Source: Mobula hypostoma
Lineage: Eukaryota
Assembly (NCBI RefSeq): GCF_963921235.1
Contig: NC_086097.1
Location: 88,538,001 to 88,602,000 of the forward strand
Length of the DNA: 64,000 bases
Direction: 5' to 3'
Position numbers and translations under genes: made by a program. The notes under the pieces are model-generated. The model saw nothing but the letters and a program-made list of their open reading frames with translations, searched no databases and was not told where the DNA came from. Position 1 is the first letter of the stretch; the number at the start of each line of letters is the position of its first letter. This document shows, one piece after another, positions 1,011-52,721 of the stretch.

Positions 1011-1324
1011 GTCTTTGATTCCTTTGGTTCATGCACAGTCCTTCAACCAGAACAGCAGAGTATATGCTGACACACACGCACATGCACTTTTGTACAACAC
1101 TGAAGAAATTCAGTGGGTCAAGCAGCATCTACGGAGAGACATGGACAGTTGTTTCAAGCCGAAATCCTTCATCGGGAATGAAAAGGATGGGGACAGAAAC
1201 CAGAATAAAAGGGTAAGTGGAGGGAGAGGGCATGAGCTGGCGGGTGACAGCTGAATCCATGTGAGAAGAAGAAGGCAGGAAGTTGGAAGGGAGGGGGAGA
1301 AAGGGAATGGTGAGTTGGATAATC

Positions 1325-3479: not shown

Positions 3480-4012
3480 AATGTGAGAAGCTGGGAGGTG
3501 ATAGGAGGGGAAATCAAAGAGTGAAAAAGGAAAGATCCAATAGCCGAGGGCAGGAGACCATGAAATAGATGGAAAGAGGTGGATATCTGGAAGGAGGAAA
3601 TTGAAAGTGATGGGCAGGTCATGAGGTCAGGAGAAGGGAAAGTCAAGGGCTAATGAAGCCACAGGGTTAAGGGAAAACAAAGTGGTGTGGAGGTAGGGAA
3701 AACCAGATGCAAGTGGTTACCCAAAGTTGGAGTAATTGAAGTTCATATGTCAGATTGGAAACTACAGAAATGGAGTATGAGGTGTTGCTCCTCATGTCTG
3801 CACCTGGCTTCCACATGTCAGTGAAAGAGGCTATAGACAGAACATGTCAAAGAGGAATTAAAATTGTTGGCCACCGTGAGGTCCTGGCTGCTACAGCGGG
3901 TGGAGTGAGGCTGCTCAGTGCAGCAATCCCCCGGTCTGTCGAGTCTCACCGGAAACATCAGATACAATAGGTGACCCTGAAGAATTTGCATGGGACCACA
4001 GATAATGGGCAA
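3480..4012 (-). mobile_element. Penelope-like element 3' fragment
   Basis: Minus strand EEQHLIL..S.Q resembles the GIY-YIG C-terminus; purine-rich 3' region shared with copies at 25.3 and 37.1 kb. Confidence 0.55.
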
Positions 4013-6590: not shown

Positions 6591-6761
6591 GAGTTAGGTC
6601 TCAGTGATGAAGAGGATATGTAGTTGTGAGCTCACTGAGGAGGCAAAATGACATCAAGGTAGGGCACAGACTAATTCAGCCGTCATTGTTTGTCAGGAGG
6701 AGTGATGGTGGTGGGACAATGAAATTTGCTTTGAGGGCCAAGGATAGTGGTGTTGGATTCT

Positions 6762-6890
6762 GAACTCTTGCAATCTCTTACTAGCTCTTCTTTCAGTTAG
6801 TCCTGATGAAGGGTCTCGGCCCGAAACATCGACTTCCTAGAGATGCTGCCTGGCCTGCTGCATTCACCAGCAACTTTTATGTGTGTTGTT
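6762..6890 (+). mobile_element. Penelope-like terminal repeat (pLTR) fragment
   Basis: ctagctcttctttcagttagtcctgatgaagggtctcggcccgaaac...agatgctgcctggcctgctg...gtgtgttg; same module follows a GIY-YIG C-terminus at 37.1 kb. Confidence 0.75.
6799..6834 (+). ncRNA. Minimal type I hammerhead ribozyme motif
   Basis: Stem I AGUC/GACU, core CUGAUGA (6803-6809), stem II GGGU-cucg-GCCC, GAAA (6823-6826), NUH triplet AUC (6828-6830); helix III essentially absent. Confidence 0.7.
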
Positions 6891-8334
6891 TGGAGTCTGA
6901 AGTTTTTTTTTTCACCCCAAGGCTCTTTGGAAGTCAAAAATGAGGGCTAAAACTTGTTGCTTACTTGTGATTGTTTTTAAGTGTTACAAGGGGAAAGGAA
7001 GATAACGGTGAGCAAAAGACAAAGGGCCTAGTGGTGAGGAAAGGACAAAGGAGACAGAGTGAGACTCAACGTGGCCTGGTCCTCTAATACCACATTGCTG
7101 ATAACACATATAAAACATTAAAATTCCATTGCTTAAATTAACATTAAGATAGCCCCTATTCAAGTAATGCAATAGCTGCCACTGAAACTGAGAAGTTTCC
7201 AGAAATACACAACAAACTATATATAGGTAACGATCCAAACATACAAACAAGCATTAGACAGTTAAACCACAATAATACAGTTCAGTCCAACAGTGGCTTT
7301 AGATTTCCAGTCTTTCGATAGAGGAATTTTCTGTCAATCTAGTATTGGACATCTGCTCAGCAGTATGACAAACCAACTGAAAGGACGAATGGAGAAAGGT
7401 GTTTATGTGGAGTTATGTGGAATCCTATTTTCTGTTTTTGGACAATGGCGCTAAAATGGAGCCCATAGCTGAAATTTTTCAGGAGCCCAAAGATAAAATC
7501 TTTTGGAGAACACCAGATACAGGGGTGCAGTCATGAGAACAAAAGACTTTGAAAGCGGTGCTCTAATCATGATAAGACTGATTAGAACTGATCAGCTAAT
7601 GATAGTGCTTCTCAGCTCAGTAATGTGCAGAGGCTTTGGAGGAACCTGCTTGCTCAAGTGGGTCAGATGGCTACTTCTGGATGTATAGGTCATGAACGAT
7701 GGCTCCTACATAGGATATCATTTATGACTATTGTGACAGACTTCAATTACAATGCTTTTAGTGAATTTACTCCGAAGCCAACAAAAATTACTGAAAAATA
7801 GTCCCCAAAACTGCAGGCAGCACACTGAGTATGGCCCAACCACAGATTTGTATAGCTGCAACAGAATATTGCACTTTCATATTTCTAGCATCTGCAGTAT
7901 TTCTCCCAAAGTTAGTTTTCTTTCATTTGCTGACATGCTTTTGTATAATTTCACCTTCTCTGTCCTATGCTGTAATTTTTCAGCCTGTTATGTGAAACAG
8001 GAGCAATTATAATGTTCTCTCATGCATGAAGCATGTCGGTACTGTAATGGAAAATATCTTGCATTTGCTTTCCAGACAGTTAATAGGATAACCCAATCAG
8101 CAGCCCATCATACACTTGTTAAACCAGCAGAAATACAAAGGGAAACAAAAGACTAATCCAATCCTAGTTAACAATTATTTATCTCCATTTGAGCAGACTA
8201 GTTCAAAAGTGCTTGTAATCAGTAAGGTTACAATAAACCTACTTTAATAGCTCTTACCAGATTAGAGCGTAAACAATCATACAGGATATTGCCTATGGAA
8301 CTGCGTGCTGTAAATGAATATGAGTAATAAGTCA

Positions 8335-16700: not shown

Positions 16701-17412
16701 ATGACCAGGAAGGCACTGAGTTTCACAGCGGACAAGCACAGCTTGCTGGCCTCGAATTTTACTCAGGCCACTAATTAGTAAGTTAAACTTTCAGGATGGC
16801 AGCAATGGAAAGATGAAGAAGATTGAGAGTCTATTAGTAGATAGAACAGAACAACATGGTCGTACAGTAACCACAGATGGGAGGACTGAGATTCTGATTC
16901 AATGCACACCCAGTCCAATCACTCTCTGTGTTTACAGTCAAGAAGATGTCCCAAACGTTTGGAATTTTTATGACTTTTCCCCATTCCACAACGTTTTTGA
17001 TGCCATCACGTAGACATCCTAGTATTCCCACTCAGTTTTTGAATGATCCTGGTCTCTATTAGTCCTGTGCCACCGTGGATTGCTAAAAAGAAGCAGTAAA
17101 TATTATGATTTTAAAGAAATCCAGATAAATGTTGGAAACCTGAAGCAGAACCAGAAGATGCTGGAACACTCAGCAGGGTGTGAGAATATTGGTTATGACA
17201 AAAGGTCTTCAACTTGAAATGTCACCTGTTTCTCGTCCTATCATTGCTAACTGATCTGTTGAGCTTCTCCAGCATGTTTGTTTTTATTAACCTACCAAAC
17301 ATCACTCACTACCTCTCCAGTAACCTGTCCAGTGCCAGCACTTGATTCCCTCTGCCTTCGCTTTCATTGAATATTTCAAATGATTTCCTCTCCTTTATGA
17401 AATACAAATATA

Positions 17413-25170: not shown

Positions 25171-25315
25171 TTTACCATTTAAAATTATGCAATTTGAACT
25201 CATTTCTCTGGATCATTTCTCTTAATCACCTGGTAACCCTGTAATCCTGTAACCCTGTAATCCCTTTGGTTGAAAGTAAAGACATATGAAATGGAAAAGA
25301 AGAGAAATTAATTTG

Positions 25316-25618
25316 AAACAAGAAAATCTGCTGATGCTGGAAATCCAAGCAACATACACAAAATGCTGGAGGAACTCAGCAGGCCAGGCGGCATCTGTGG
25401 AAAAGATTATAGCTGACGTTTCAGGCCTAGACCCTTCAGCAGGACTGGAGAAAATAAAGATGTGGAGTAGAGTTAAAAGGTGGGGAGGGGGGAGGGAGAA
25501 ACACAGGGTGTAGGTGAAACTGGGAGGGGAAGGGGTGAAGTAAAGAGCTGGGAAGTTGACTGGTGAAAGAGATACAGGGCAAGAGAAGGGGGAGTCTGAT
25601 AGGAGAGGACAGAAGGCT
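25316..25618 (-). mobile_element. Penelope-like terminal fragment with mutated hammerhead core
   Basis: Minus strand ccagtc CTGCTGA agggtctaggcct GAAA cgtc at 25411-25448, followed by agatgccgcctggcctgctgagttcctccagc. Confidence 0.75.
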
Positions 25619-31402: not shown

Positions 31403-32966
31403 CAGGGGTGCTAGGAAGTTTGTGAACCCTGTAAAATTTCCTTTATTTCTGCATAACTGTGACCTAAAATGTGATCAGATCTTCACATAAATCCTAAAGC
31501 TAGATAAAGCAAACTCAATTAAATAAATAACACAGAAGTGTTATACTTGTTCATTTATTTATTGTGAAAAATGATCCAATATTTCGGTAACTGGTGTGGC
31601 CCCTTTCATCTACAATAACGTCAACCAAACATTTCTGATAACTGTTGATCAGTCCTGCACACTGACTTGGAGGAATTTTAGGCCATTCCTCCTCACAAAA
31701 CTGCTTCAGCTCTGGAATGTTGGTGGGCTTCCTTGCATGAACTGCTTGTCTCAGGAGCTTCCACAACATTTCTATAGGATTAAGGTCAGGACATTGACTG
31801 GGCCATTCCAAAACATGAATTTTCTTCTTTTTAAACTATTGTGTTGTTGATTTACTCTTGTCTTTTGGATCAATGTCTTGTTGCATTATTCAGCTTCTAT
31901 TAAACTTCAGGTAACAACTACACTGACATCCTCCTGTAAAATGTCTTGATACAATCTTGAATTCATTGTTCCCTTAGTGATTGCAAGCAGTCAGGCCTTG
32001 AGGCAGTAAAGCAGCCCCAAACCATGATGCTCCTTCCACCATGCTTCACAGTTGGGATGAAGTTTGGGTGTTGATGTGCAGTGCTCTTTTCCCCCCAAAC
32101 AATGCAATGTGCTTTTCTGCCAAAAACTTCAACTTTTCTTTCATCTGTCCACAGAACATTGTCCCAGAAGTGTTGTAGAACATCCAGGTGGTCTTTTGCA
32201 AACTTGAGACTTACAGCAATGTTTTTTTTGGAGAGAAGTGGTTTCCTACATGGTGTCCTTCCATGAACACCATTCTTGTTCAGTATTTTTCTTTTAATGG
32301 ACACATGAGCAGAGAATTTAGCAAGTTCTAGAGATTTCTGCAGGTTTTGTGCTGTTACCTTGGGTTCTTTTACACCTCCTTCAGCATTGCATGTTGTGCT
32401 CCTGGTGTGATCTTTGCAGGATGCCCATTCCTAGGGAGAGTAGCAAAAGGACTGAGTTTCTTCCATTTGTAGACAATTTCTCTTACTGTGGATGGATGAT
32501 CACTCTGATATTTAGAAATAGTTTTGTGGCCTTTTCTAGCTTCATGCATCTCTACAATTCTTCTTCTAAGATCCCCTGAAAGTTGTTTTGATCGAGGCAT
32601 GGTGCACATAAATAGATCTTTCTCGAGAAGGGCAGGCTGTGTCAGTAACCTGACTTTGCCCATCGTTTTTATAGGGCAGGGCACCTCCACAACCCACACC
32701 TCCAATCTCATCTCATTGATTGAAACACCTGACTCCAAATAGCTTTTGTAGAAAGCATTACCCCGGAGGTTCACATACTTTTTCCAACAAATACTTGTAA
32801 TATTGGATCATTTTTCTCAATAGATAAATGAATAAATATAACATTTTTGGTGTTATTTATTTAATCGGGTTCTCTTTATTTAGTTTTAGGACTTGCATGA
32901 AGATTTGATCACATTTTAGGTCATACTTATGTAGAAATGGAGGAATTTCTCCCTAGTTCACAGACT
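31403..32966 (-). mobile_element. Tc1-family DNA transposon with about 180-bp TIRs and disrupted DD34E transposase
   Basis: TA then caggggtgctaggaagtttgtgaacc; inverted match at about 32797-32966; transposase from ATG 32600 MPRSKQLSGDLRRRIV, GHPAKIT, VLWTDE, KHGGRSIMVWGCF, QQDID, WPSQCPDLNPIEMLW; frameshifted; right tip overwritten by a SINE fragment. Confidence 0.92.
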
Positions 32967-36231: not shown

Positions 36232-36331
36232 ATAGAAAACATTATCATGCGGATGCAGGATGAAAAAGCGGGTGGAGTGCCTATTCGAACAGTGAAGAGC
36301 TTTCTGTCAAAGATTCCCAGTGTCATCACAG
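36232..36331 (+). CDS. RGS6: Internal coding exon (100 bp, phase 0 to phase 1) of regulator of G-protein signaling 6, start of the DEP domain
   Basis: Polypyrimidine tract and acceptor (gtctttttctttcttcaacag, AG at 36230-36231). Frame reads [33 protein letters not shown]+G, matching recalled RGS6 [34 protein letters not shown] better than RGS7 ([33 protein letters not shown]). Donor ACAG|GCAAGT. Too short for the ORF track. Confidence 0.9.
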
Positions 36332-36434
36332 GCAAGTCTACTTGGCCAGATTTACATAAAGCTCATGCAGCCATTCCTACACTGCACATGCGCAGTTTGA
36401 TAATCAGATAGAGCAACATGTAAATGAGAATCAA

Positions 36435-37069: not shown

Positions 37070-37495
37070 TCTTTTGCTGTCTGGGTAGCCTCCAACCTGA
37101 TGGCTTGAATGTCAATTTCACCTTTGGTAAAAAATATTTCAATACTGCTCCCCCCCCCCCAACTTCTTCTATTCCCCACCCTGGTCTCTTACCTCTTTTC
37201 ACCTGCCTATCACCTCCTCCTGTGTCCCCTCCTCCTTCCCCTTCTCTGATGGTCCACTCCTCTCTCCTATCAGATTCCTTCCTCTCCAGCCCTTTATGTT
37301 TCCCACCCACCTGGCTTCACCTATCACCTTCTAGTTATCTTCCTTCCCCTTCCCACCATCTTTTTATCCTGGCAGCTTCCCCCTTCCTTTCCAGCCCTGA
37401 AGAAGGAAGGTGTCTCAGCCTGAAATGTCGACTGTTTATTCATTTCCGTAGATGCTGCCTGACCTGCTGAGTTCCTCCAGCATTTTCTATCTGTT
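37070..37495 (+). mobile_element. Penelope-like element 3' end: GIY-YIG C-terminus plus pLTR with hammerhead motif
   Basis: CLGSLQPDGLNVNF (LG.L.P.GLN motif), then cagcc CTGAAGA ... GAAA tgtc gactg (37392-37434) and agatgctgcctgacctgctgagttcctccagc. Confidence 0.8.
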
Positions 37496-40400
37496 GGTGT
37501 TGCGAGAAATTCACCCCCAGTACACTTGTTAACATTTCACTAATCAAAAGGAGCTCAAATATGATATTTGTGCATTCAAAATGACTTGCACTTCCGCCAA
37601 CGTCACATCAGCAACAGCATTTCACTTTATGAGATATTGATGAGGGAAGTGACGAGCATTATGTAAATTTGAACACTTGATAGGATCTAAAACACACAGC
37701 AATGAGCAATGAAACAGAAGGTAAAACTACGCAAATGTCAGTGCTTTCAGCTGATAAGTGTAACTATCTAGATTCATGACAGTGTTTCTATGATGCTGCT
37801 TACAATGACAGCAACCTGAATATGAACATCATCCAATACCACCTCAGTTCTCTATGTCCTTTTATTTGCTTTTCAATGGCTGATTAGTGGAGCTACATTT
37901 ACAAACCAGGCTTCCATGTGCTTAAGTATTTAAGGGTAATTTTAAGTGAAACAAACCATAGAAAGTGGACAGTTTTAGCTCAGATCAATTTTGCATCACA
38001 TCCATATCTTATGTTGATAATGGATAGGAGAATTAACACCACACTCAAATATTTATTTTAATGCTGTTCTCTAATGTGAGAAGCTTGGATTCACAGTTAC
38101 TAACAAATGTGATTGCATTGCGTGGAATAATTTACACAGTAAAATTTCAGTTCCAACATCTTGGTTAAATCCAATGTACTGTCAAAAAAATGAAGACTTT
38201 CACCTCTTCTTCAGCTGAAAAGATATCATGTGATCTAAGGTTGGGCAATTTCAACTCATCTACCAGTAAGCAGAGACACAACGTGTAATTGTATCCAAAA
38301 ATTGGGTCAGTAAACTCAGCCCTAGAGGAAGTGGGAAAACAAATTATTGTCAGCTCTGGAGAAGCTGTACCATATACCCTGTCATTTGATCAAAATATTT
38401 TACATTCCATTGTTGACAATCAAGTAAATAAACATCAAATCATAAATAAAAGAAAAGAATGATTTATCAAAGCCATGCATTTAACATTGACATGGGAAAT
38501 ATCAGGAGAGTTAGACTTCCGCTGGGTCTACAAAGTAGCATCTCTCTGATATTAGTCACAAAAAAGACAGAGCTGTGTGTTCATTCATTTATTGAAGCTG
38601 CAAGTATGTGAGAAGGTGATTTAAAGAGTACAGCATGTGCAGCTTTGATATAAGGACCAGCTTCACTGGAAGAATGACTAGAACTCATTCATTTCTCTTT
38701 ATTATCTGCTTACCTTTGATTCTGCTCTTGGCAGAGTTTGCACATCAGATCCTATTGATAGACCCTTTCTCTAAATCCAATAATGGAACATTTGGGACAG
38801 AAATAGGAGAAAGTCACTCAATCCTGGTGTTTAGGTGACAAAAAATAAAATTGTATCGAACCATCTGTGTTGTTCACAAGTGTTTTGAGCATCAAGATTA
38901 CTTAACTAATTTAAAAAATCTGGATAGTGCAATTAAATGGCTGTTATACTGGAAAACTATGGTGTTATTCAAAAGGTATATCCTGAGGAAAAATTGCACT
39001 GTTTATGATTTCAGCTGTTCAGATATAAATGTACATGATATAAATCGCATGCCTATTATTTGAATGTTACATTTTAAGCTTTCTCATTGAGATACCAGAT
39101 TGTTCATTGTTAAATTGAAGTCTGCATAGGGATTTGTTGAGGTTATTTTTTTCATACAAATTCATTTGAACTACATGTGAATTTTTACTTATTCGTTGTT
39201 AAGCATGATTGGCAATTAGTTGTGCGAAGCATTTCTTTAAAAAACAGAGCAGACCCTCTGTGCAGGTGACACATATGTACATGAAGACTGCTTGCGTGAA
39301 TTAATGTCAGTTCTGTTACACATTTGATTTTTGCAGGTGGTTCAGGCCTTGATCAAGTCTACAAGCCCAAGCTGCAGGCATGTTTAATATATCAATATTA
39401 AAGGGCCACCCCTATCTATGTTACTGCTGGAGATTACGAAGTGTCGATTTCCCTTAAGTTAACTTCATACTCATCATTTGTGATCAGCCCTGCAACTCTC
39501 TCCTACCTTTGCTGATATCCCCTGCCAATGTCCCTTCTTCTTCACAGCCCATTCCAATTTCCTCCCCTGCTGCTTACCTGGCACTGGGACGTGCAAGCTT
39601 TTACCTCTGATACAGAGTTTAGACCCGGAACATCAACAATACGTGTTAAAGTTGCTCAACCTGTTGAATTCCTTCAGCAGATTGTTTGTTGCAGAATTTT
39701 AATTCTTGCTTTTGTCTGCTGCTGGCTTTAATGCTGCTCAGTATTTCTTCAGCTGATATCTGGTTTCTTTAGTTGGTTTCTCCAGTCAAAAGTTAGTTCT
39801 TCACATGTGCTGTGCTGACATCCAGCCTAGAGAAGTCTTTCCTGCATCCATGATATTATTTGTTCTTGAAATATGGACATTGCCTTTGGCATAACGACTG
39901 GATCATTTTAGGGAACAGTAACATTCAACGGGGATGTAGATAGAACTCACATGTAAGGAAGACCAGAGGTAACAAGGTCCTTTCCCTAAATGGCTTTAAT
40001 GAAACAGTGGGAGTTTCACAGTGGTCTTTCAATGTTCATGTTTGCTTTTCTGGTGTTAGTCTACATTTCACTGAATGTATTGAATTCCTTTCACTGACTC
40101 AGTAATTGGATCTAACCTGATGTAAGTGATGTGACCCAGCATAGCCATCCTTTCCATACAGATCTTATTGATTTACAGGATATGAAGACGGGGGTAACAT
40201 TAATACTAGAGACTAACAGATAGGCAGAGCGAGAGTGGGAAATGATGATGTAACTTGATTTTACACTAAGCAAGTCCTGGATGGCAGGTTTGCTAATGGA
40301 GGATTCAAAATTAAACTCATTTATATCAGGCAAAAGACGCGTGAGGAAGTCAGTAATAACTGACATTGTGAAAAATCTAAGAACTGAGGATACTGGCAAC

Positions 40401-41545: not shown

Positions 41546-42990
41546 TATATAGTAATGGTTGTGAAGAGATAAATTTTGGTTGACTGATAAATTTTAAATG
41601 GCATAGGGATTGGACCCCTGCTTCTCTTCAGAATCATGGATTTTTCTTCTGACTTAGAGGGCAAACAGAACTTCATTTTAATACCCACCCCATCAAAAAG
41701 ACAGGGCCGATGACGGAGAAGCACTCTCTCACTAGTGCACAGTTGGCACAATTTATAAACACAAGTCTCTTTGGTGGGGGGTAGGGGGGGAGACTAGAAA
41801 CCATAAATTTTGACTCAGAGACAAAGGAGTGTTATCTCTTGAGGTATAACTAATGTTACTGATATGGGCAAACTCTGCAAATCCACTAATTCATTCACTT
41901 GGAATGGAAATTTAACTAGAGTAAGAATGCAAATTCAATTCAGGAAGGGTTATATCATAACAAAAATTATTTTCCTTAGGTTAGTGCATTTTATTGTCTA
42001 ATGTGGAATCCAATTTTACTTGCTATTTAAGTAGCCCTTTGATTTAATTAACTGTAAAAACAAGCCAGCAAGATCACTGCTTGGGGGTTCTAGCTGAAGA
42101 GGTGATAGTTGTATATTTAATATTTCAGTAATGTTTGAGTAATCTTGTGTGTATATATATTGGTTGATTAAGCATTTTTGCTCCTTTAAATAATTCATTA
42201 TGGGTTATATGTGAGTTACATATATGAATTGCATAGGTCTTCACAGTACCATGTGATGTGTGCATACCTCGCTTAAAGTAAAAACTTAAGTTAGATTCAC
42301 ATTTCAGACTCCATGTCTTCCTTTTAACCAGTTTAATGCTTTGAAGTTACAAAACATAACATTGGAGACAAGATATTTTTAAAACAAACCCAAGATGACT
42401 GCTATTCAAGTTAAAAGAAAGCAGCACAGTATGTTTTTATTTAGATGGAAAGACAAAACTGAGTTTTTTAAAAATAGGCAGAAAATGGAAGAACTCACAG
42501 GTTCATAAAGAGTGAGTACAAGATGATAATAATCATTTAAAAAAAACAGCAGACATGGCTGGCTACCTCAGAAAGATAGACATGTTCGATTGCTCAACAG
42601 GTAACAGGCTCATGTATACTGAGCAAAATGAACTGTATTTTAAAGCAAATGGAATAGCCAATGAAGCAAGTACCAATTTTGCTGAGTGCGTTGGGTTTAG
42701 AGGTGTGCAGTTTGCTTCACAGTTTAAATGCTCCAACCAAACCAGCCGAAATGAGTTATGCTAATATCATGAACGTAATGCAGGAACATTTAGGACCAAA
42801 ACCATTGTTGATTTCAGAACGTGTTAGGTTTCATAAGTGAAATTAAAAAGAAGGGGAGTCCATTTCAGCATATGTGGCTGAATAGAAGATCTGCGTGAGA
42901 ACATGGTCAAAGAGTCAGAGGGGAGCAGTAGAGGGTTTGAGCAGTGAGAGGATTTGAACTTCTTTAGGGTAGGCATTTCTGGACAAAGAG

Positions 42991-44300
42991 GAGAAAATCA
43001 GCAGATGCTGAAAATCCAAGCAACATACACAAAATGCTGGAGGAAATCAGCAGGCCAGGCAGCATCTATGGAAAAGAATAAATAGTCGATGTTTCAGGCC
43101 AAGACCCTTCATCAGGAAGAAAGATGAGAAGTTAAAGCAAGAATATCTGGTGTTCGTGATAGGATGAAAAACTGGGCTGAGAAATGGCAGATGGAGTTCA
43201 ACCCAGATAAGTGTGAGGTGGTTCATCTTGGTAGTGTGGAGGATCAGAGGGGTCTTGGGGTCTTAGTCCATAAGACACTCAAAGCTGCTGTACAGGTTGA
43301 TTTTGTGGTTAGGAAGGCATATGGTGCATTGGCCTTCATCAATCGTGGGATTGAGTTTAAGAGTTGAGAGGTAATGTTGCAGCTATATAGGACCCTGATC
43401 AGACCCCACTTGGAGTACTGTGCTCATTTCTGGTCGTCTCACTACAAGAAGGATATGGAAACCATAGAAAAGGTGCAGAGGAGATCTAGAAGGATGTTGC
43501 CTGGGTTGGGGAGCATGCCTTATGAAGACAGGTTGAGTGAACTCGGCCTTTTCTCCTTGGAGCAATGGAGGATGAGAGGTGACCTGATAGAGGTGTATAA
43601 GATAATGAGAGGTATTGCTCGTGTGGATAATCAGAGGCTTTTTCCCAAGGCTGAAATGGCTAGCATGAGAGGGCACAGTTTTAAGGTGCTTGGAAGTAGG
43701 TACAGAGGAGATATCAGGGGTAAGTTTTTTATGCAGAAAGTGGTGAGTGCATGGAATGGGCTGCCAGCGACGGTGGTGGAGTCAGATACAATAGCGTCTT
43801 TTAAGAGACTCCTGGACATGTACATAGAGCTCAGAAAAATAGAGGGCTATGAGTAACCCTAGGTAATTTCTAAGGTAAGGACATGTTCAGCACAGCTTTG
43901 TGGGCCGAAGGGCCTGTATTGTGTTGTAGGTTTTCTTTCTTTCTAATATGAGGGGAGGGGAGGAAGAAGTACAAGGTAGTAGGCGACTCTTCAACTGTGT
44001 GCTCACCCAGACCTGCTACCACAGCCAGGTCTCCTTCCTGGGAACATATCTTCACTGCCATCTTATGCCACATAGCTTCCAAGTCAATTTTCAAGTACCT
44101 ATCACCTACCACCTTGTACTTCTTCCTCCCCTCTCCCACCTTCTTTCTCTAACTTCTCATTGATTTTTCTGATCCTGATGAAGGGTCTCAGCCTGACACA
44201 TCAACTGTTTACTCTTTCCCATAGATGCTGCCTGGCCTGCTGAGTCCCTGCAGCATTTTATGTGTGTTGCTCGGATTTCCAGCATCTGCAGATTTTCTCT
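42991..44300. mobile_element. Penelope-like fragments in inverted arrangement inside Gypsy gag, themselves split by a CR1
   Basis: Minus pLTR 42991-43145 (hammerhead core 43084-43117) and plus pLTR about 44090-44300 (core 44171-44206, GAAA mutated to GACA). Confidence 0.7.
43150..43940 (+). mobile_element. CR1 3' fragment (RT C-terminus plus tail)
   Basis: WAEKWQMEFNPDKCEVVHLG; MLQLYRTLIRPHLEYC..; RMRGDLIEVYKIMRG; gggccgaagggcctgtattgtgttgtagg tail. Confidence 0.9.
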
Positions 44301-47300
44301 TCATTGTCAGTTCAATGATGGCCTTAATGGTGTACTGAGAGATCATTTGGTTGTGGAATCTTACAAGAAAGTTTTCAAAAGCATCTTCTAACTGAAGCAC
44401 AACTTACACTTAAAAGAGCAGTTGAAATCACTGTTTGAACAGAAACTGCAGACAGAGACATAATGGAGTTATAGTCAGTCAGGAATGAAAGTAAGTGTCA
44501 ACAAAATAATGTTTGTGGCAGGGGCTCACATTCACTGTGCCAAAGTAGATTTAAAGGTGAAACTTGCAGAAAAAGCAACAAAGTAGGACACATGCAAAAA
44601 GCATGTCAGGCAGACAAAAATAAATGGACTGCACAAGGAAGAGAAAAAGATTTTAAAAAGTTCAAGTTTCAAAAAGAGCACTAATCTGCATGCTGTTGAT
44701 GAAAAACCTGATAATGATGAGAGTGACACAGGACTGAGTGGCCTTGAGATTTACAATGTGAAAATTGATAATAGACAAGCTTATGTCACAAGTGAAAGGC
44801 AAATTAATTAAAATGGAATTGGAGGCTGGCTTGGCTGTTTCAGTTATTCCACAAAATGAGTCTGAACAACATTTCAAATATACTGAACTGAAGCCTCCAG
44901 ATATCCAACTAAGAACTTATACCGGAGGAAGGATAACTCCTGTGAGAATGAGTTTCTTGACAGTGAAATACAACAACTAACATGAGCTTGTATGCGGTAA
45001 AAACAGGAGGATCAACATTATGGGGTGTGACTGGCAGAGACAACTACAACTTGATTGGAGAGTCCATCCACCACTTGCATGCCACATCTCCTGTAATAAC
45101 GTCAACTGTAAGCAAATTAAGAAAGGTACTGGATGATGTCAGAGCAGCGTTCAAGGATGGCATTGGAAAACTCAAACATATCAAGGGTAAAATAGTGTTA
45201 AATGAAAATGCCACACCCAAGTATTACAATGCCCACCCAGTTCCTTATATCATTCCTGATAAAGTAGCCAGTGAGCTAGATCACATGAAGGCAGAATGAG
45301 TTCTTTCAGAGATTGAGTGGAGGTCATTGACAACACCAGTGTCCCCAGTAGCCAAGAAGAATGGGTCTGTGAGAATCTGTAGTGATTTTAATGTCACCAT
45401 GAACTCTATTGAAAGTAGGTCAATACCTTCTGCCCAGGTTAGAGGATATCTTTGCAAACCTTTCTGGGTGAGAACACTTCAGCAAAGTAGACTTAACTGA
45501 GGCCTATCTATAATTGGAAATAAAAGAGTCCAAAGTGATTCTCACCAAAAGCACTCACAAAGGGCTTTATTACTATAATAGGCTGATTTTTGGAGTAGTA
45601 TCCACACCTGCACTCCAGCAGAAACCTATGGACCAGGTGGTGCAAGGCTTCTCAGGCACTCAGTGTTACCTGGATAGCATCATTAGTACTGGTAAAGTTG
45701 ATAAGGAACATCTCCAAAATATCAAGATGATGTTGTGAATTTCTTAATCCAAGCATCGCTTACTATGGTCACCCTGTGATGCACAATGATTACACAAGTG
45801 TGCTGAGAAAATTTGAGCAGTGGTGGATACTCCAAGGATGGTTCACAGTTGTGCTCCTTTTTAGGATTTGTCAATTACTATGACAGGTTCCTACCAAACC
45901 TGGTGACTGTGCTCCATCTCTTGAAATCATGACTGCAGATTGGGAAGAAATGGCAATGGACAAAGCATTCTGAGGTGTCTTTCAAAAAGGTAAGGAAATG
46001 GTGATGTCAGATGCTTTAGTCACACCATCCGGTGAAACTTGCCTGTGATGCCTCACCTTATGGTATGGGTGCAGTCATGTCACATGTTCTGAGTGATGGA
46101 AGTGAATGCCCCAGAGCCTTTGCATCACGTTCCCTTACTGCTGCAAAGAAAAATTACACACAGATTGACAGAGAGGCTTTGACTCTAGTTTGGGGTGTAA
46201 AACTCTTTTACCAGTACTTGTGTGGGAGAGAGTTTACCCTCGTTACTGATCATAGCCACTAGTGTCCATTTTCAATCCACAGAAGTGTGTTCCACTAACA
46301 GCAGTAGCATCATTGCAGAGATGGGCTCTGTTTCTTGGATGACACAATTACAAGACTGAATTCAAGAGGATGAATTATCATGGAACTGCTGATGGATTGT
46401 CCTATTTACCCTTGGAAAAGGAAATATCAGAAATATTTACCAAAAGATATACTCCGCTTGATGTATTTTCCCTAACGCAAATTGAAAGTCCCCCTATTAC
46501 ATCATAGAAGATCCAAAAGAAAACCAGAAAAGACTCCACACTGTCTCAGGTCTACATGGCAACCCAAAATGGATGGAATGTGTTCCAGAAATTCCAGTTT
46601 CCCCATTCTTCCCATTCTTAACAGCACCGAGATAAATTTGTCCTTGATGGAAGTTGCGTAACATGGGGATTGAGAGTTGTTGTACCACCCAAGCTGAGAG
46701 CTAAAGTGTTGGAGCAGCTACATGCTGACGTGGTCAAAATGAGAGCGTTGGCTCAAAGCTTTGTCTGGTGGCCTGGGATAGATCAACAGATTGAGTAGCT
46801 TGTCACGCACCGTACAGGATGCCGGCACATCTCGAAGATGCCAAGAGTAGCGCCTCGCCATCCCTGGGAATGCCATGCATTGCCCTGGCAGAGTATTCAT
46901 GTGGCTGTTGCTGGACTGTTCATAGGCACAAATTTCTTGTTAGTAGTGGGTGCAGTTACAAAGTGGCCAGAAGTATTTCCAACAGCCTGACATGCTATTG
47001 ATGTGTTGAGAAGCCTCTTTGCATTGACTGGTGTTCCAGAACACTTAGTCAGTGACAATGGACCACAGCATGTAGTGGAACAACTTCTGTCATTCCTAAA
47101 ACTGAATGGAATAAGACATATTACATCTGCACCGTACCCCAGTTACAAATGGCTTGGTGGAAAGGTTTGTTCAAAGTCTAGGAATGCATAGTGAGCAATG
47201 TCAGCAGAATGCAGCACACTGACACCGAATCACAGTTCGCCAATATTCTGCTTGCCTATTGTAATGAGGCACACACCAAAACCAACAACTCACAAGCTGT

Positions 47301-51880: not shown

Positions 51881-52105
51881 GCACAAAAATACCGGAGGAA
51901 CTCAGCAAGTCAAGCAGCATCTACTGTATGGAGAGGAATAAATGGTTGATGTTTCAGGCCGAGTCCTGATGAAGGGTCTTGACCTAAAATGTCAACTGTT
52001 TTTAACTCTGCATGGATGCTGCCTGGCCTGCTGAATTCTTCCAGAATTTTGTGTGTTCTGTGTGTTGCTCCAGATTTCCAGCATCTGTAAAACCTCTTGT
52101 GTTTC
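51881..52105. mobile_element. Head-to-head palindromic Penelope pLTR pair
   Basis: Left arm ...ggaggaactcagcaagtcaagcagcatc...gttgatgtttcaggccgag abuts right arm agtcCTGATGAagggtcttgacct...ggatgctgcctggcctgctgaattcttccag. Confidence 0.75.
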
Positions 52106-52721
52106 TCTTCATTCTTATGTTAAAACCCTCTTGCAATAAAAGCCTTCTTCCAGCTATGTATCTGCTTATTAGATTTTAGCAACTTGTAAATGCATGAGTT
52201 GTACACCGGTGGCAAAGTGGTTAGTGCAGAGCAAGTTTTGGCCTGCCACCACTTTGTTATGAAAGATTAAACACGGGTGACGCTGCTGGAGATAGTCTTG
52301 AGTATGAACTGCATGATATGCTCTGGTTGGACACTGAAGGAATCTGTTTTGTTTGTGGTATATGCATTAGCTGATATGTGAGTACAATTGATAGCAGCTT
52401 GCACCATGAGGGAAGTCCATACTACAAAGCCAACTCCCTGCTCTGCCTGCTCTCCTTAGGCATGGAAGAACATTCTTTTGGATCTCTTTATTCAGTGGTG
52501 AGCATCAGAGAGAGATATATGGTAGAAGTCTCTATCTCCAGCTGGAAGGATCATGAAGTGTAGAAATGCATGGTCAATGTGACCTTAGCCAACTCTGGCA
52601 AAGAGTTCTTTGTGTGTCTGTGCAGTTGTAGCCATGGGTAAGTATGTAGCATGGTTCAGTGGTGCTCTGTTACTGAAATGCCACAGAATACTAATATGTG
52701 ATCTGTATTAAAACCCCGTGA

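Follow-up and report, generated by a model that had tools for sequence, protein, structure and literature searches.

Does a small ribozyme motif in an intron of a signalling-regulator gene act on the RNA of its host gene, or is it the remnant of a mobile element? The motif lies at 6799-6834 (+) of the window (the whole 64-kb stretch of DNA analysed) and has the anatomy of a minimal hammerhead. The reading that we hold with high confidence is that it comes from the terminal repeat of a Penelope-like element (PLE), that it sits in an RGS6-type intron as a 5'-truncated copy, and that, having lost its ACGT tetramer by a CpG change, it is likely inert in the pre-mRNA.

The motif and its host gene

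The sequence is as an earlier note on this DNA described it: a 36-base minimal type I hammerhead motif with stem I, core, stem II and an NUH site, in which helix III is absent. Read along the forward strand, stem I (6799-6802 with 6831-6834) encloses the core CTGATGA (6803-6809), an extra unpaired A between positions 9 and 10.1 (6810), stem II (6811-6814 with 6819-6822), and GAAA (6823-6826) followed by C-A-T-C, which places the predicted cut at 6830/6831. The copy has the core of the PLE minimal hammerheads (CUGANGA ... GAAA ... NUH with helices I and II), their unpaired nucleotide between 9 and 10.1 (the A at 6810) and their G10.1-C11.1 pair (G6811-C6822). Unlike them it has lost the palindromic tetramer from which helix III of a dimer is built, G16.2 having changed to A at 6828 and turned ACGT into ACAT (6826-6829).

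A structure descriptor for such motifs found 13 distinct sites in a 400-kb genome sample (40 stretches taken from large contigs at round coordinates) vs 0, 1, 0, 0 and 0 in five Markov controls; reversed-pattern controls had 0 matches genome-wide, and the 6799 copy was the only one in the window to pass. The hammerhead search that the earlier note proposed is positive by descriptor and negative by Rfam, in which no hammerhead model matched the motif at E<=10; the 13 weak Rfam matches, mostly miRNA-like hairpins, were taken as chance. With neither a match to an Rfam hammerhead model nor a helix III, the copy lies outside the canonical and domesticated type I hammerheads. The unmatched models are also what would speak for a chance hammerhead resemblance inside a repeat. 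We consider this extremely improbable: both core strands, both stems, the palindrome, the extra nucleotide at 9.1, the position in a PLE terminal repeat (pLTR) and compensatory changes occur together, and the descriptor background is 0-1 per 400 kb.

The host gene is identified by a coding exon of an R7-family RGS gene at 36232..36331 (+), which has a GC donor and a PDB match to RGS7 (E 1.6e-8), by six later exons 136-157 kb from the window start, and by a first coding exon 368.5 kb before the window start. The gene is putatively RGS6, judging by residues of its exons. Since the first coding exon and the exon at 36232-36331 lie on either side of it, the 6799 copy is in sense in a ~405-kb intron, and the exon positions bear out the sense-strand placement claimed for it, with the gene secure as R7 family and putatively RGS6. 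The GC donor itself (36332-36333) follows the RGS exon, and because the frame resumes in the next exon ~100 kb downstream this looks like a GC-AG intron. The likely promoter is a CpG-island-like kilobase ~403 kb ahead of the window, which puts it 35 kb upstream of the first coding exon.

The Penelope-like source and the truncated copies

Upstream of exact matches to the motif, genomic loci continue for varying distances into an ORF with a GIY-YIG domain at its end, and in six of 12 loci, chosen for long frames, same-strand hammerheads lie ~3.5 kb apart around this ORF (3512 nt in locus L083). The L083 ORF has 1016 aa counted from its first Met, and the ORF matches the Pfam domains RVT_1 (E 1.8e-5) and GIY-YIG (E 5.4e-4), both just below gathering cut-offs. 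Between reverse transcriptase (RT) and endonuclease is a CX4CxxC linker, CKRNKCYTC, of the Neptune-type CX2-5CxxC form. The order hammerhead, RT and GIY-YIG ORF, hammerhead in these long-ORF relatives locates the motif in PLE pLTRs, as the earlier note had proposed in tying it to Penelope-like minimal type I hammerheads; the single ORF with RT and C-terminal GIY-YIG, the partial pLTR tandems and the inverted truncated copies are those of endonuclease-positive PLEs. A pLTR-ORF-pLTR layout with inverted truncated companions is canonical for PLEs in the part of Craig et al. (2021, PMC8557442) available to us. Also as in the Neptune-type elements treated there, a single ORF carries RT and then GIY-YIG with a CX2-5CxxC linker, and pLTR partial tandems accompany inverted 5'-truncated copies; the same source gives this linker for Nematis too, and the likeness to the clade here is one of linker and layout.

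Minimal hammerheads in metazoan PLE pLTRs have been described by Cervera and De la Pena (2014, PMC4209133), and the 6799 family is of this already known kind. Judged against the available text of that paper, the family is likewise type I without helix III or loop 3, has a helix I of 4-5 bp, an unpaired nucleotide between 9 and 10.1 and, at the family level, a palindromic tetramer at 15.2-16.2, occurs in both pLTRs and is found mostly as solo truncated copies and opposite-strand pairs. It differs in its helix II (4-5 bp vs 7-8 in Schistosoma), in a copy number roughly ten times those of coelacanth (4,000) and Xenopus (9,000; PMC4209133), and in its youngest, long-ORF lineage (L081, L083, L085-L088), where G10.1-U11.1 replaces the conserved G-C; G-U is found in 26/44 young copies and in 76 of the first 100 listed CpG-degenerate matches (counted by eye). 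We found neither sharks nor rays listed in supplementary file 2 of PMC4209133, and searches of the open literature turned up no account of these hammerheads from either group; retrozymes have been reported in one chondrichthyan, in the part of that report available (10.64898/2026.07.22.740005).

The 6799 motif lies in a 5'-truncated 3' tip of such an element, a pLTR fragment of ~120 bp at 6772..6889 (+) that aligns end to end with the copies L018 and L002. It is bounded by 14-bp target-site duplication copies at 6753..6766 and 6890..6903 (both +), 12/14 identical; a 14-bp pair with two mismatches has a chance rate of 0.007 (2000 random window pairs). Just after stem I the insert has an 8-nt deletion, which with 5 substitutions separates it from L018 and which it has in common with L002, from which it differs by 3 substitutions. 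Because ACAT occurs only at 6799 among five matches carrying this deletion, with ACGT kept in 4/5, the change is a private CpG change that likely arose after insertion. We rejected the idea that C7T and G16.2A at 6799 are a compensating pair that keeps an inactive rod paired, since T7 is common to L002 and both are frequent CpG changes.

Two other known settings of hammerheads were compared and set aside for this copy. Like the non-LTR retrozymes (PMC7229834; 10.64898/2026.07.22.740005) it carries a type I hammerhead from PLE pLTRs, but those are, in the portions of these sources at hand, tandem units each with a hammerhead, whereas 6799 is a solo dispersed tip between target-site duplications. 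Like the domesticated intronic ribozymes (the RECK and CTCL hammerheads, PMC6155905; Cpeb3, PMC10919898) it lies in sense in a vertebrate intron, but those are complete, monomeric and conserved across species in the accessible accounts, and 6799 is one of tens of thousands of repeat copies, inserted recently, incomplete and carrying mutations.

Nine family fragments were found in the window by nhmmer. The five further copies that had been claimed (25411, 37392, 43084, 44171 and 51962) are all present, and all carry core or stem lesions. An older-subfamily tip at 25309..25485 (-; copy 25411) has kept ACGT and has the core CTGCTGA and a broken stem I. An older tip at 37080..37496 (+) comprises the last ORF codons, a pyrimidine-rich 3' region, a broken hammerhead (37392-37434, ATGT, with a 5-nt insertion and a stem I change) and a tail. 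This copy had been placed directly after a GIY-YIG C-terminus; a remnant of the ORF C-terminus is indeed near (37080-37109, 90% identical to the last codons of the long-ORF element), but it lies ~290 nt upstream, spans only ~10-15 codons and on its own has no Pfam match. The tips at 42976..43142 (-) and 44134..44317 (+) form the antisense and sense arms of an inverted pair, in which hammerhead 43084 lacks the 5' strand of stem I and copy 44171 has GAAA changed to GACA. A fold-back insertion at 51884..52107 (both strands) joins an antisense tail (51884-51966) to a sense copy (51962-52107) with G12 changed to A, giving AAAA instead of GAAA. Beyond the earlier note's list are a decayed copy at 1099..1181 (-) and a strongly decayed one at 17196..17280 (+), the sole other sense fragment of the window within the intron of 6799; the sense copies 37392, 44171 and 51962 lie past the exon at 36232-36331 and are therefore in another intron.

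Other repeats lie in the window and in the loci compared. At 3749-3937 (-) is an old PLE endonuclease C-terminus remnant (37% identity), and a long hairpin at 43938-44152, the source of the best miRNA-like Rfam matches, overlaps an N-terminal PLE ORF piece (43969-44097) within the 43.0-44.3 kb inverted insertion. A broken transposase between 117-nt inverted repeats (31417-32966, -) is presumably Tc1/mariner-like, and broken CR1/L2-type LINE copies and a long CT-rich simple repeat occupy 57.6-62.0 kb (-), 62.9-64.0 kb (+) and 27.4-28.0 kb. Elsewhere, an open frame of 1130 codons (L084:3752-7141, -) fuses a LINE RT fragment in frame to a truncated PLE ORF. A PLE hammerhead tip occurs at the same site in two copies of a DNA repeat (L139:7600-7900, -; L124:5670-6110, +) of which three further copies (L018, L103, L136) have no PLE tip; we assume the repeat to be hAT-like from its terminus. 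The tip was probably captured once by this repeat and spread by DNA transposition. The upstream sequence common to two truncated copies, considered as a spliced exon, proved to be this DNA-transposon-like repeat that captured the tip.

Copy number, decay and covariation

The 35-nt motif with C11.1 has 5,931 exact matches in the genome and 77,343 when CpG transitions are allowed, and a first-look search with an RT fragment gave 34,285 candidates. The 400-kb sample held 62 family fragments and 10 intact palindromic motifs, which extrapolate to about 540,000 fragments and about 87,000 intact motifs genome-wide.

Judged from the copies, ACGT is the ancestral tetramer: the old subfamily (n=11) holds only decay products (6 ACAT, 4 ATGT, 1 ATAT, 0 ACGT), and young copies are mostly intact, with ACGT kept in 34/44, a set that excludes the 6799 copy because of its deletion. 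The proposal of an ancestral ACGT decaying by CpG mutation is upheld by these counts. The further statement that most copies have decayed is true of the window (5/6) and of the old subfamily, and does not extend to the young copies or to copies of all ages, of which 46/85 keep ACGT; among the first 100 listed CpG-degenerate matches 88 keep it (counted by eye). Copies with the catalytically lethal G8A are common, as inert inserted copies would lead one to expect, and number 1,424 against 2,349 with the neutral C7T at the same CpG. We did not accept this comparison as a neutrality test, since older subfamilies with fixed T7 inflate C7T and so confound it; the lower number of G8A could reflect selection.

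Covariation of stems I and II, which the earlier note had named as a check on the motif, is found between subfamilies. In 23 distinct rows from four subfamilies, hand-picked and recording few events inherited by many copies, 94.5% of 183 stem cells are paired (slid controls, 9-49%), and two-sided changes occur in 3/8 stem pairs: C-G/U-A in stem I, and G-C/G-U/A-U and U-G/U-A in stem II. The 11 old-subfamily rows were drawn by a pattern that fixed part of the stems; bases flanking this pattern also pair. As read from the aligned copies, the signal points to selection in the source elements, not in the inserted copies.

Cleavage, masking and what the family may do

In the accessible parts of the published work, two minimal hammerheads pair through the palindrome and build helix III, with weak cleavage in vitro (PMC4209133, PMC6765202). 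Under this model, two pLTR hammerheads 3.5 kb apart in a source element would pair via ACGU, giving helix III and excising a unit RNA; the hammerhead structure would be selected there, and inserted copies would decay without selection. The 6799 copy likely does not cut host RNA, because the palindrome thought to be needed is lost. In read-through RNA it is moreover predicted to be masked, either by the pyrimidine tract upstream of it or by antisense copies.

Folding predictions illustrate both points. The 6799 homodimer is predicted to form 2/4 helix III pairs, and the monomer a rod that ties up the core, GAUG pairing with CAUC at a probability of about 0.9. When 30 nt of upstream flank are included, the predicted probability of the stems at 6799, about 0.9 otherwise, drops to 0.03-0.08; six other copies show the same drop, and an eighth has no stems at any flank length. 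Copies without an upstream flank can, in folding, be masked by their own tail, and an antisense duplex of 6799 with 25309..25485, in the same intron, is predicted at -126 kcal/mol. ViennaRNA omits tertiary contacts and ranks even intact ACGU dimers less stable than monomers, so these energy models cannot prove inactivity; dimer energies were abandoned as an activity test, as they did not separate active from inactive forms. A selected upstream masking switch is not borne out either, since shuffled flanks mask as well (mean stem II probability 0.19; 10/100 as low as observed).

Along 532 kb of the host gene, family fragments are nearly equal in number on the two strands (42 sense vs 40 antisense), and intact palindromic motifs number 6 sense vs 10 antisense (p 0.45); no strand bias against sense copies is detected in this small test, with which a two-fold depletion is compatible. 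Intact solo copies number 1 sense vs 4 antisense, and for five of the six intact sense copies an inverted partner lies no more than 3 kb away. The intron of 6799 tolerates three intact sense copies. An intact solo sense ACGT copy ~281 kb before the window start, also in this intron, starts at the motif front edge and has a perfect 14-bp duplication.

The earlier note had suggested that sense copies in one pre-mRNA might pair and cleave the intron. This gains no support here, the partners that it named being broken and in the next intron, no strand bias being detected and masking being predicted. In the form weighed here, 6799 would join a second sense copy of that pre-mRNA in a heterodimer, cutting it or being cut, and would thereby modulate the processing of RGS6. 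The enzyme strand of 6799 is intact, and ACAT and ATGT are exact complements, so that with the ATGT copies at 37397 or window+112848 a 4-bp helix III (4/4 Watson-Crick pairs) could form; the modelled 6799 x 112848 dimer has -14.6 kcal/mol vs -6.6 for the homodimer. A splicing-tuned intronic ribozyme is known in Cpeb3, according to the available part of PMC10919898. However, both ATGT copies belong to the next intron, at distances of 31 and 106 kb; the intron of 6799 does hold intact partners, but these are 171-288 kb off and offer 3/4 pairs. Long duplexes with antisense copies are predicted to be far more stable (-126 to -221 kcal/mol), and no strand bias is detected in the gene. In related systems, moreover, cleavage of a minimal hammerhead from Schistosoma was only weak even with two copies in tandem (PMC4209133), and 8/9 Xenopus retrozyme dimers were uncleaved (10.64898/2026.07.22.740005). 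We therefore rate a heterodimer acting on RGS6 as very unlikely, and prefer to regard 6799 as an inert passenger.

At the level of the family the genomic copies raise a different doubt. Each of the 28 copies with upstream sequence continues for 57-109 nt beyond the cut site, and the start points of copies fall at the motif front edge, 21-37 nt before the cut, in 11/48 cases and at the cut in 1/48. Such run-through copies, on the evidence of their ends, put family-level cleavage in doubt, and together with the clustered starts they would suit a motif that now serves mainly as a structured 5' end signal (a start site, splice acceptor or RT stop) and keeps the hammerhead fold. The G10.1-U11.1 of the youngest lineage, in 26/44 young copies and the long-ORF copies, would also agree with this, and the function of the hammerheads in these elements is still unclear in the portion of PMC8557442 available. 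Against it, subfamilies with different loops and stem pairs all retain every catalytic core base, the palindrome and both stems, a retention expected under selection for catalysis, and slow or partial cleavage would leave run-through copies too. On balance we think an end signal unlikely as the main role, and retain a hammerhead whose structure is probably selected in the source elements.

A further possibility, to which we likewise give only a small share of our belief, is that the pLTR hammerhead is gated. The pyrimidine tract and the AG inside stem I would form a 3' splice site that pairs with the core, holding the ribozyme off in read-through RNA and releasing it only in element RNAs whose start, or whose splice junction, lies at the front edge. 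At 6777..6800 (+), before the ribozyme, there is a branch-point-like, pyrimidine-rich, AG-ending stretch, a candidate splice acceptor that is predicted to pair with and mask the core; we presume it to be acceptor-like by comparison with the splice-signal consensus. The pyrimidine tract and the AG inside stem I occur in all subfamilies seen, the AG after the tract in 55/85 copies. The arrangement recalls Penelope of Drosophila virilis, where an intron ends at hammerhead helix I in the available text of PMC4209133. No spliced junction at the motif was found in genomic copies and shuffled flanks also mask, and we therefore treat gating as conjectural. If true, it would account for the tolerance, in a vertebrate genome, of about 10^5 intact copies, many of which lie in introns in the sense orientation, and vertebrate PLEs would join the Drosophila virilis element in having an intron-defined hammerhead.

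Taken singly, the 6799 copy matters little, being one decayed passenger among many. For tests, the pair of L083 pLTRs and the intact solo copy lying in sense in the same intron, 281 kb upstream of the window, would serve better. To the question of what PLE hammerheads do, the family as a whole brings a large test set: long-ORF elements, an estimated 87,000 intact motifs, covarying subfamilies and introns in which sense copies are tolerated.
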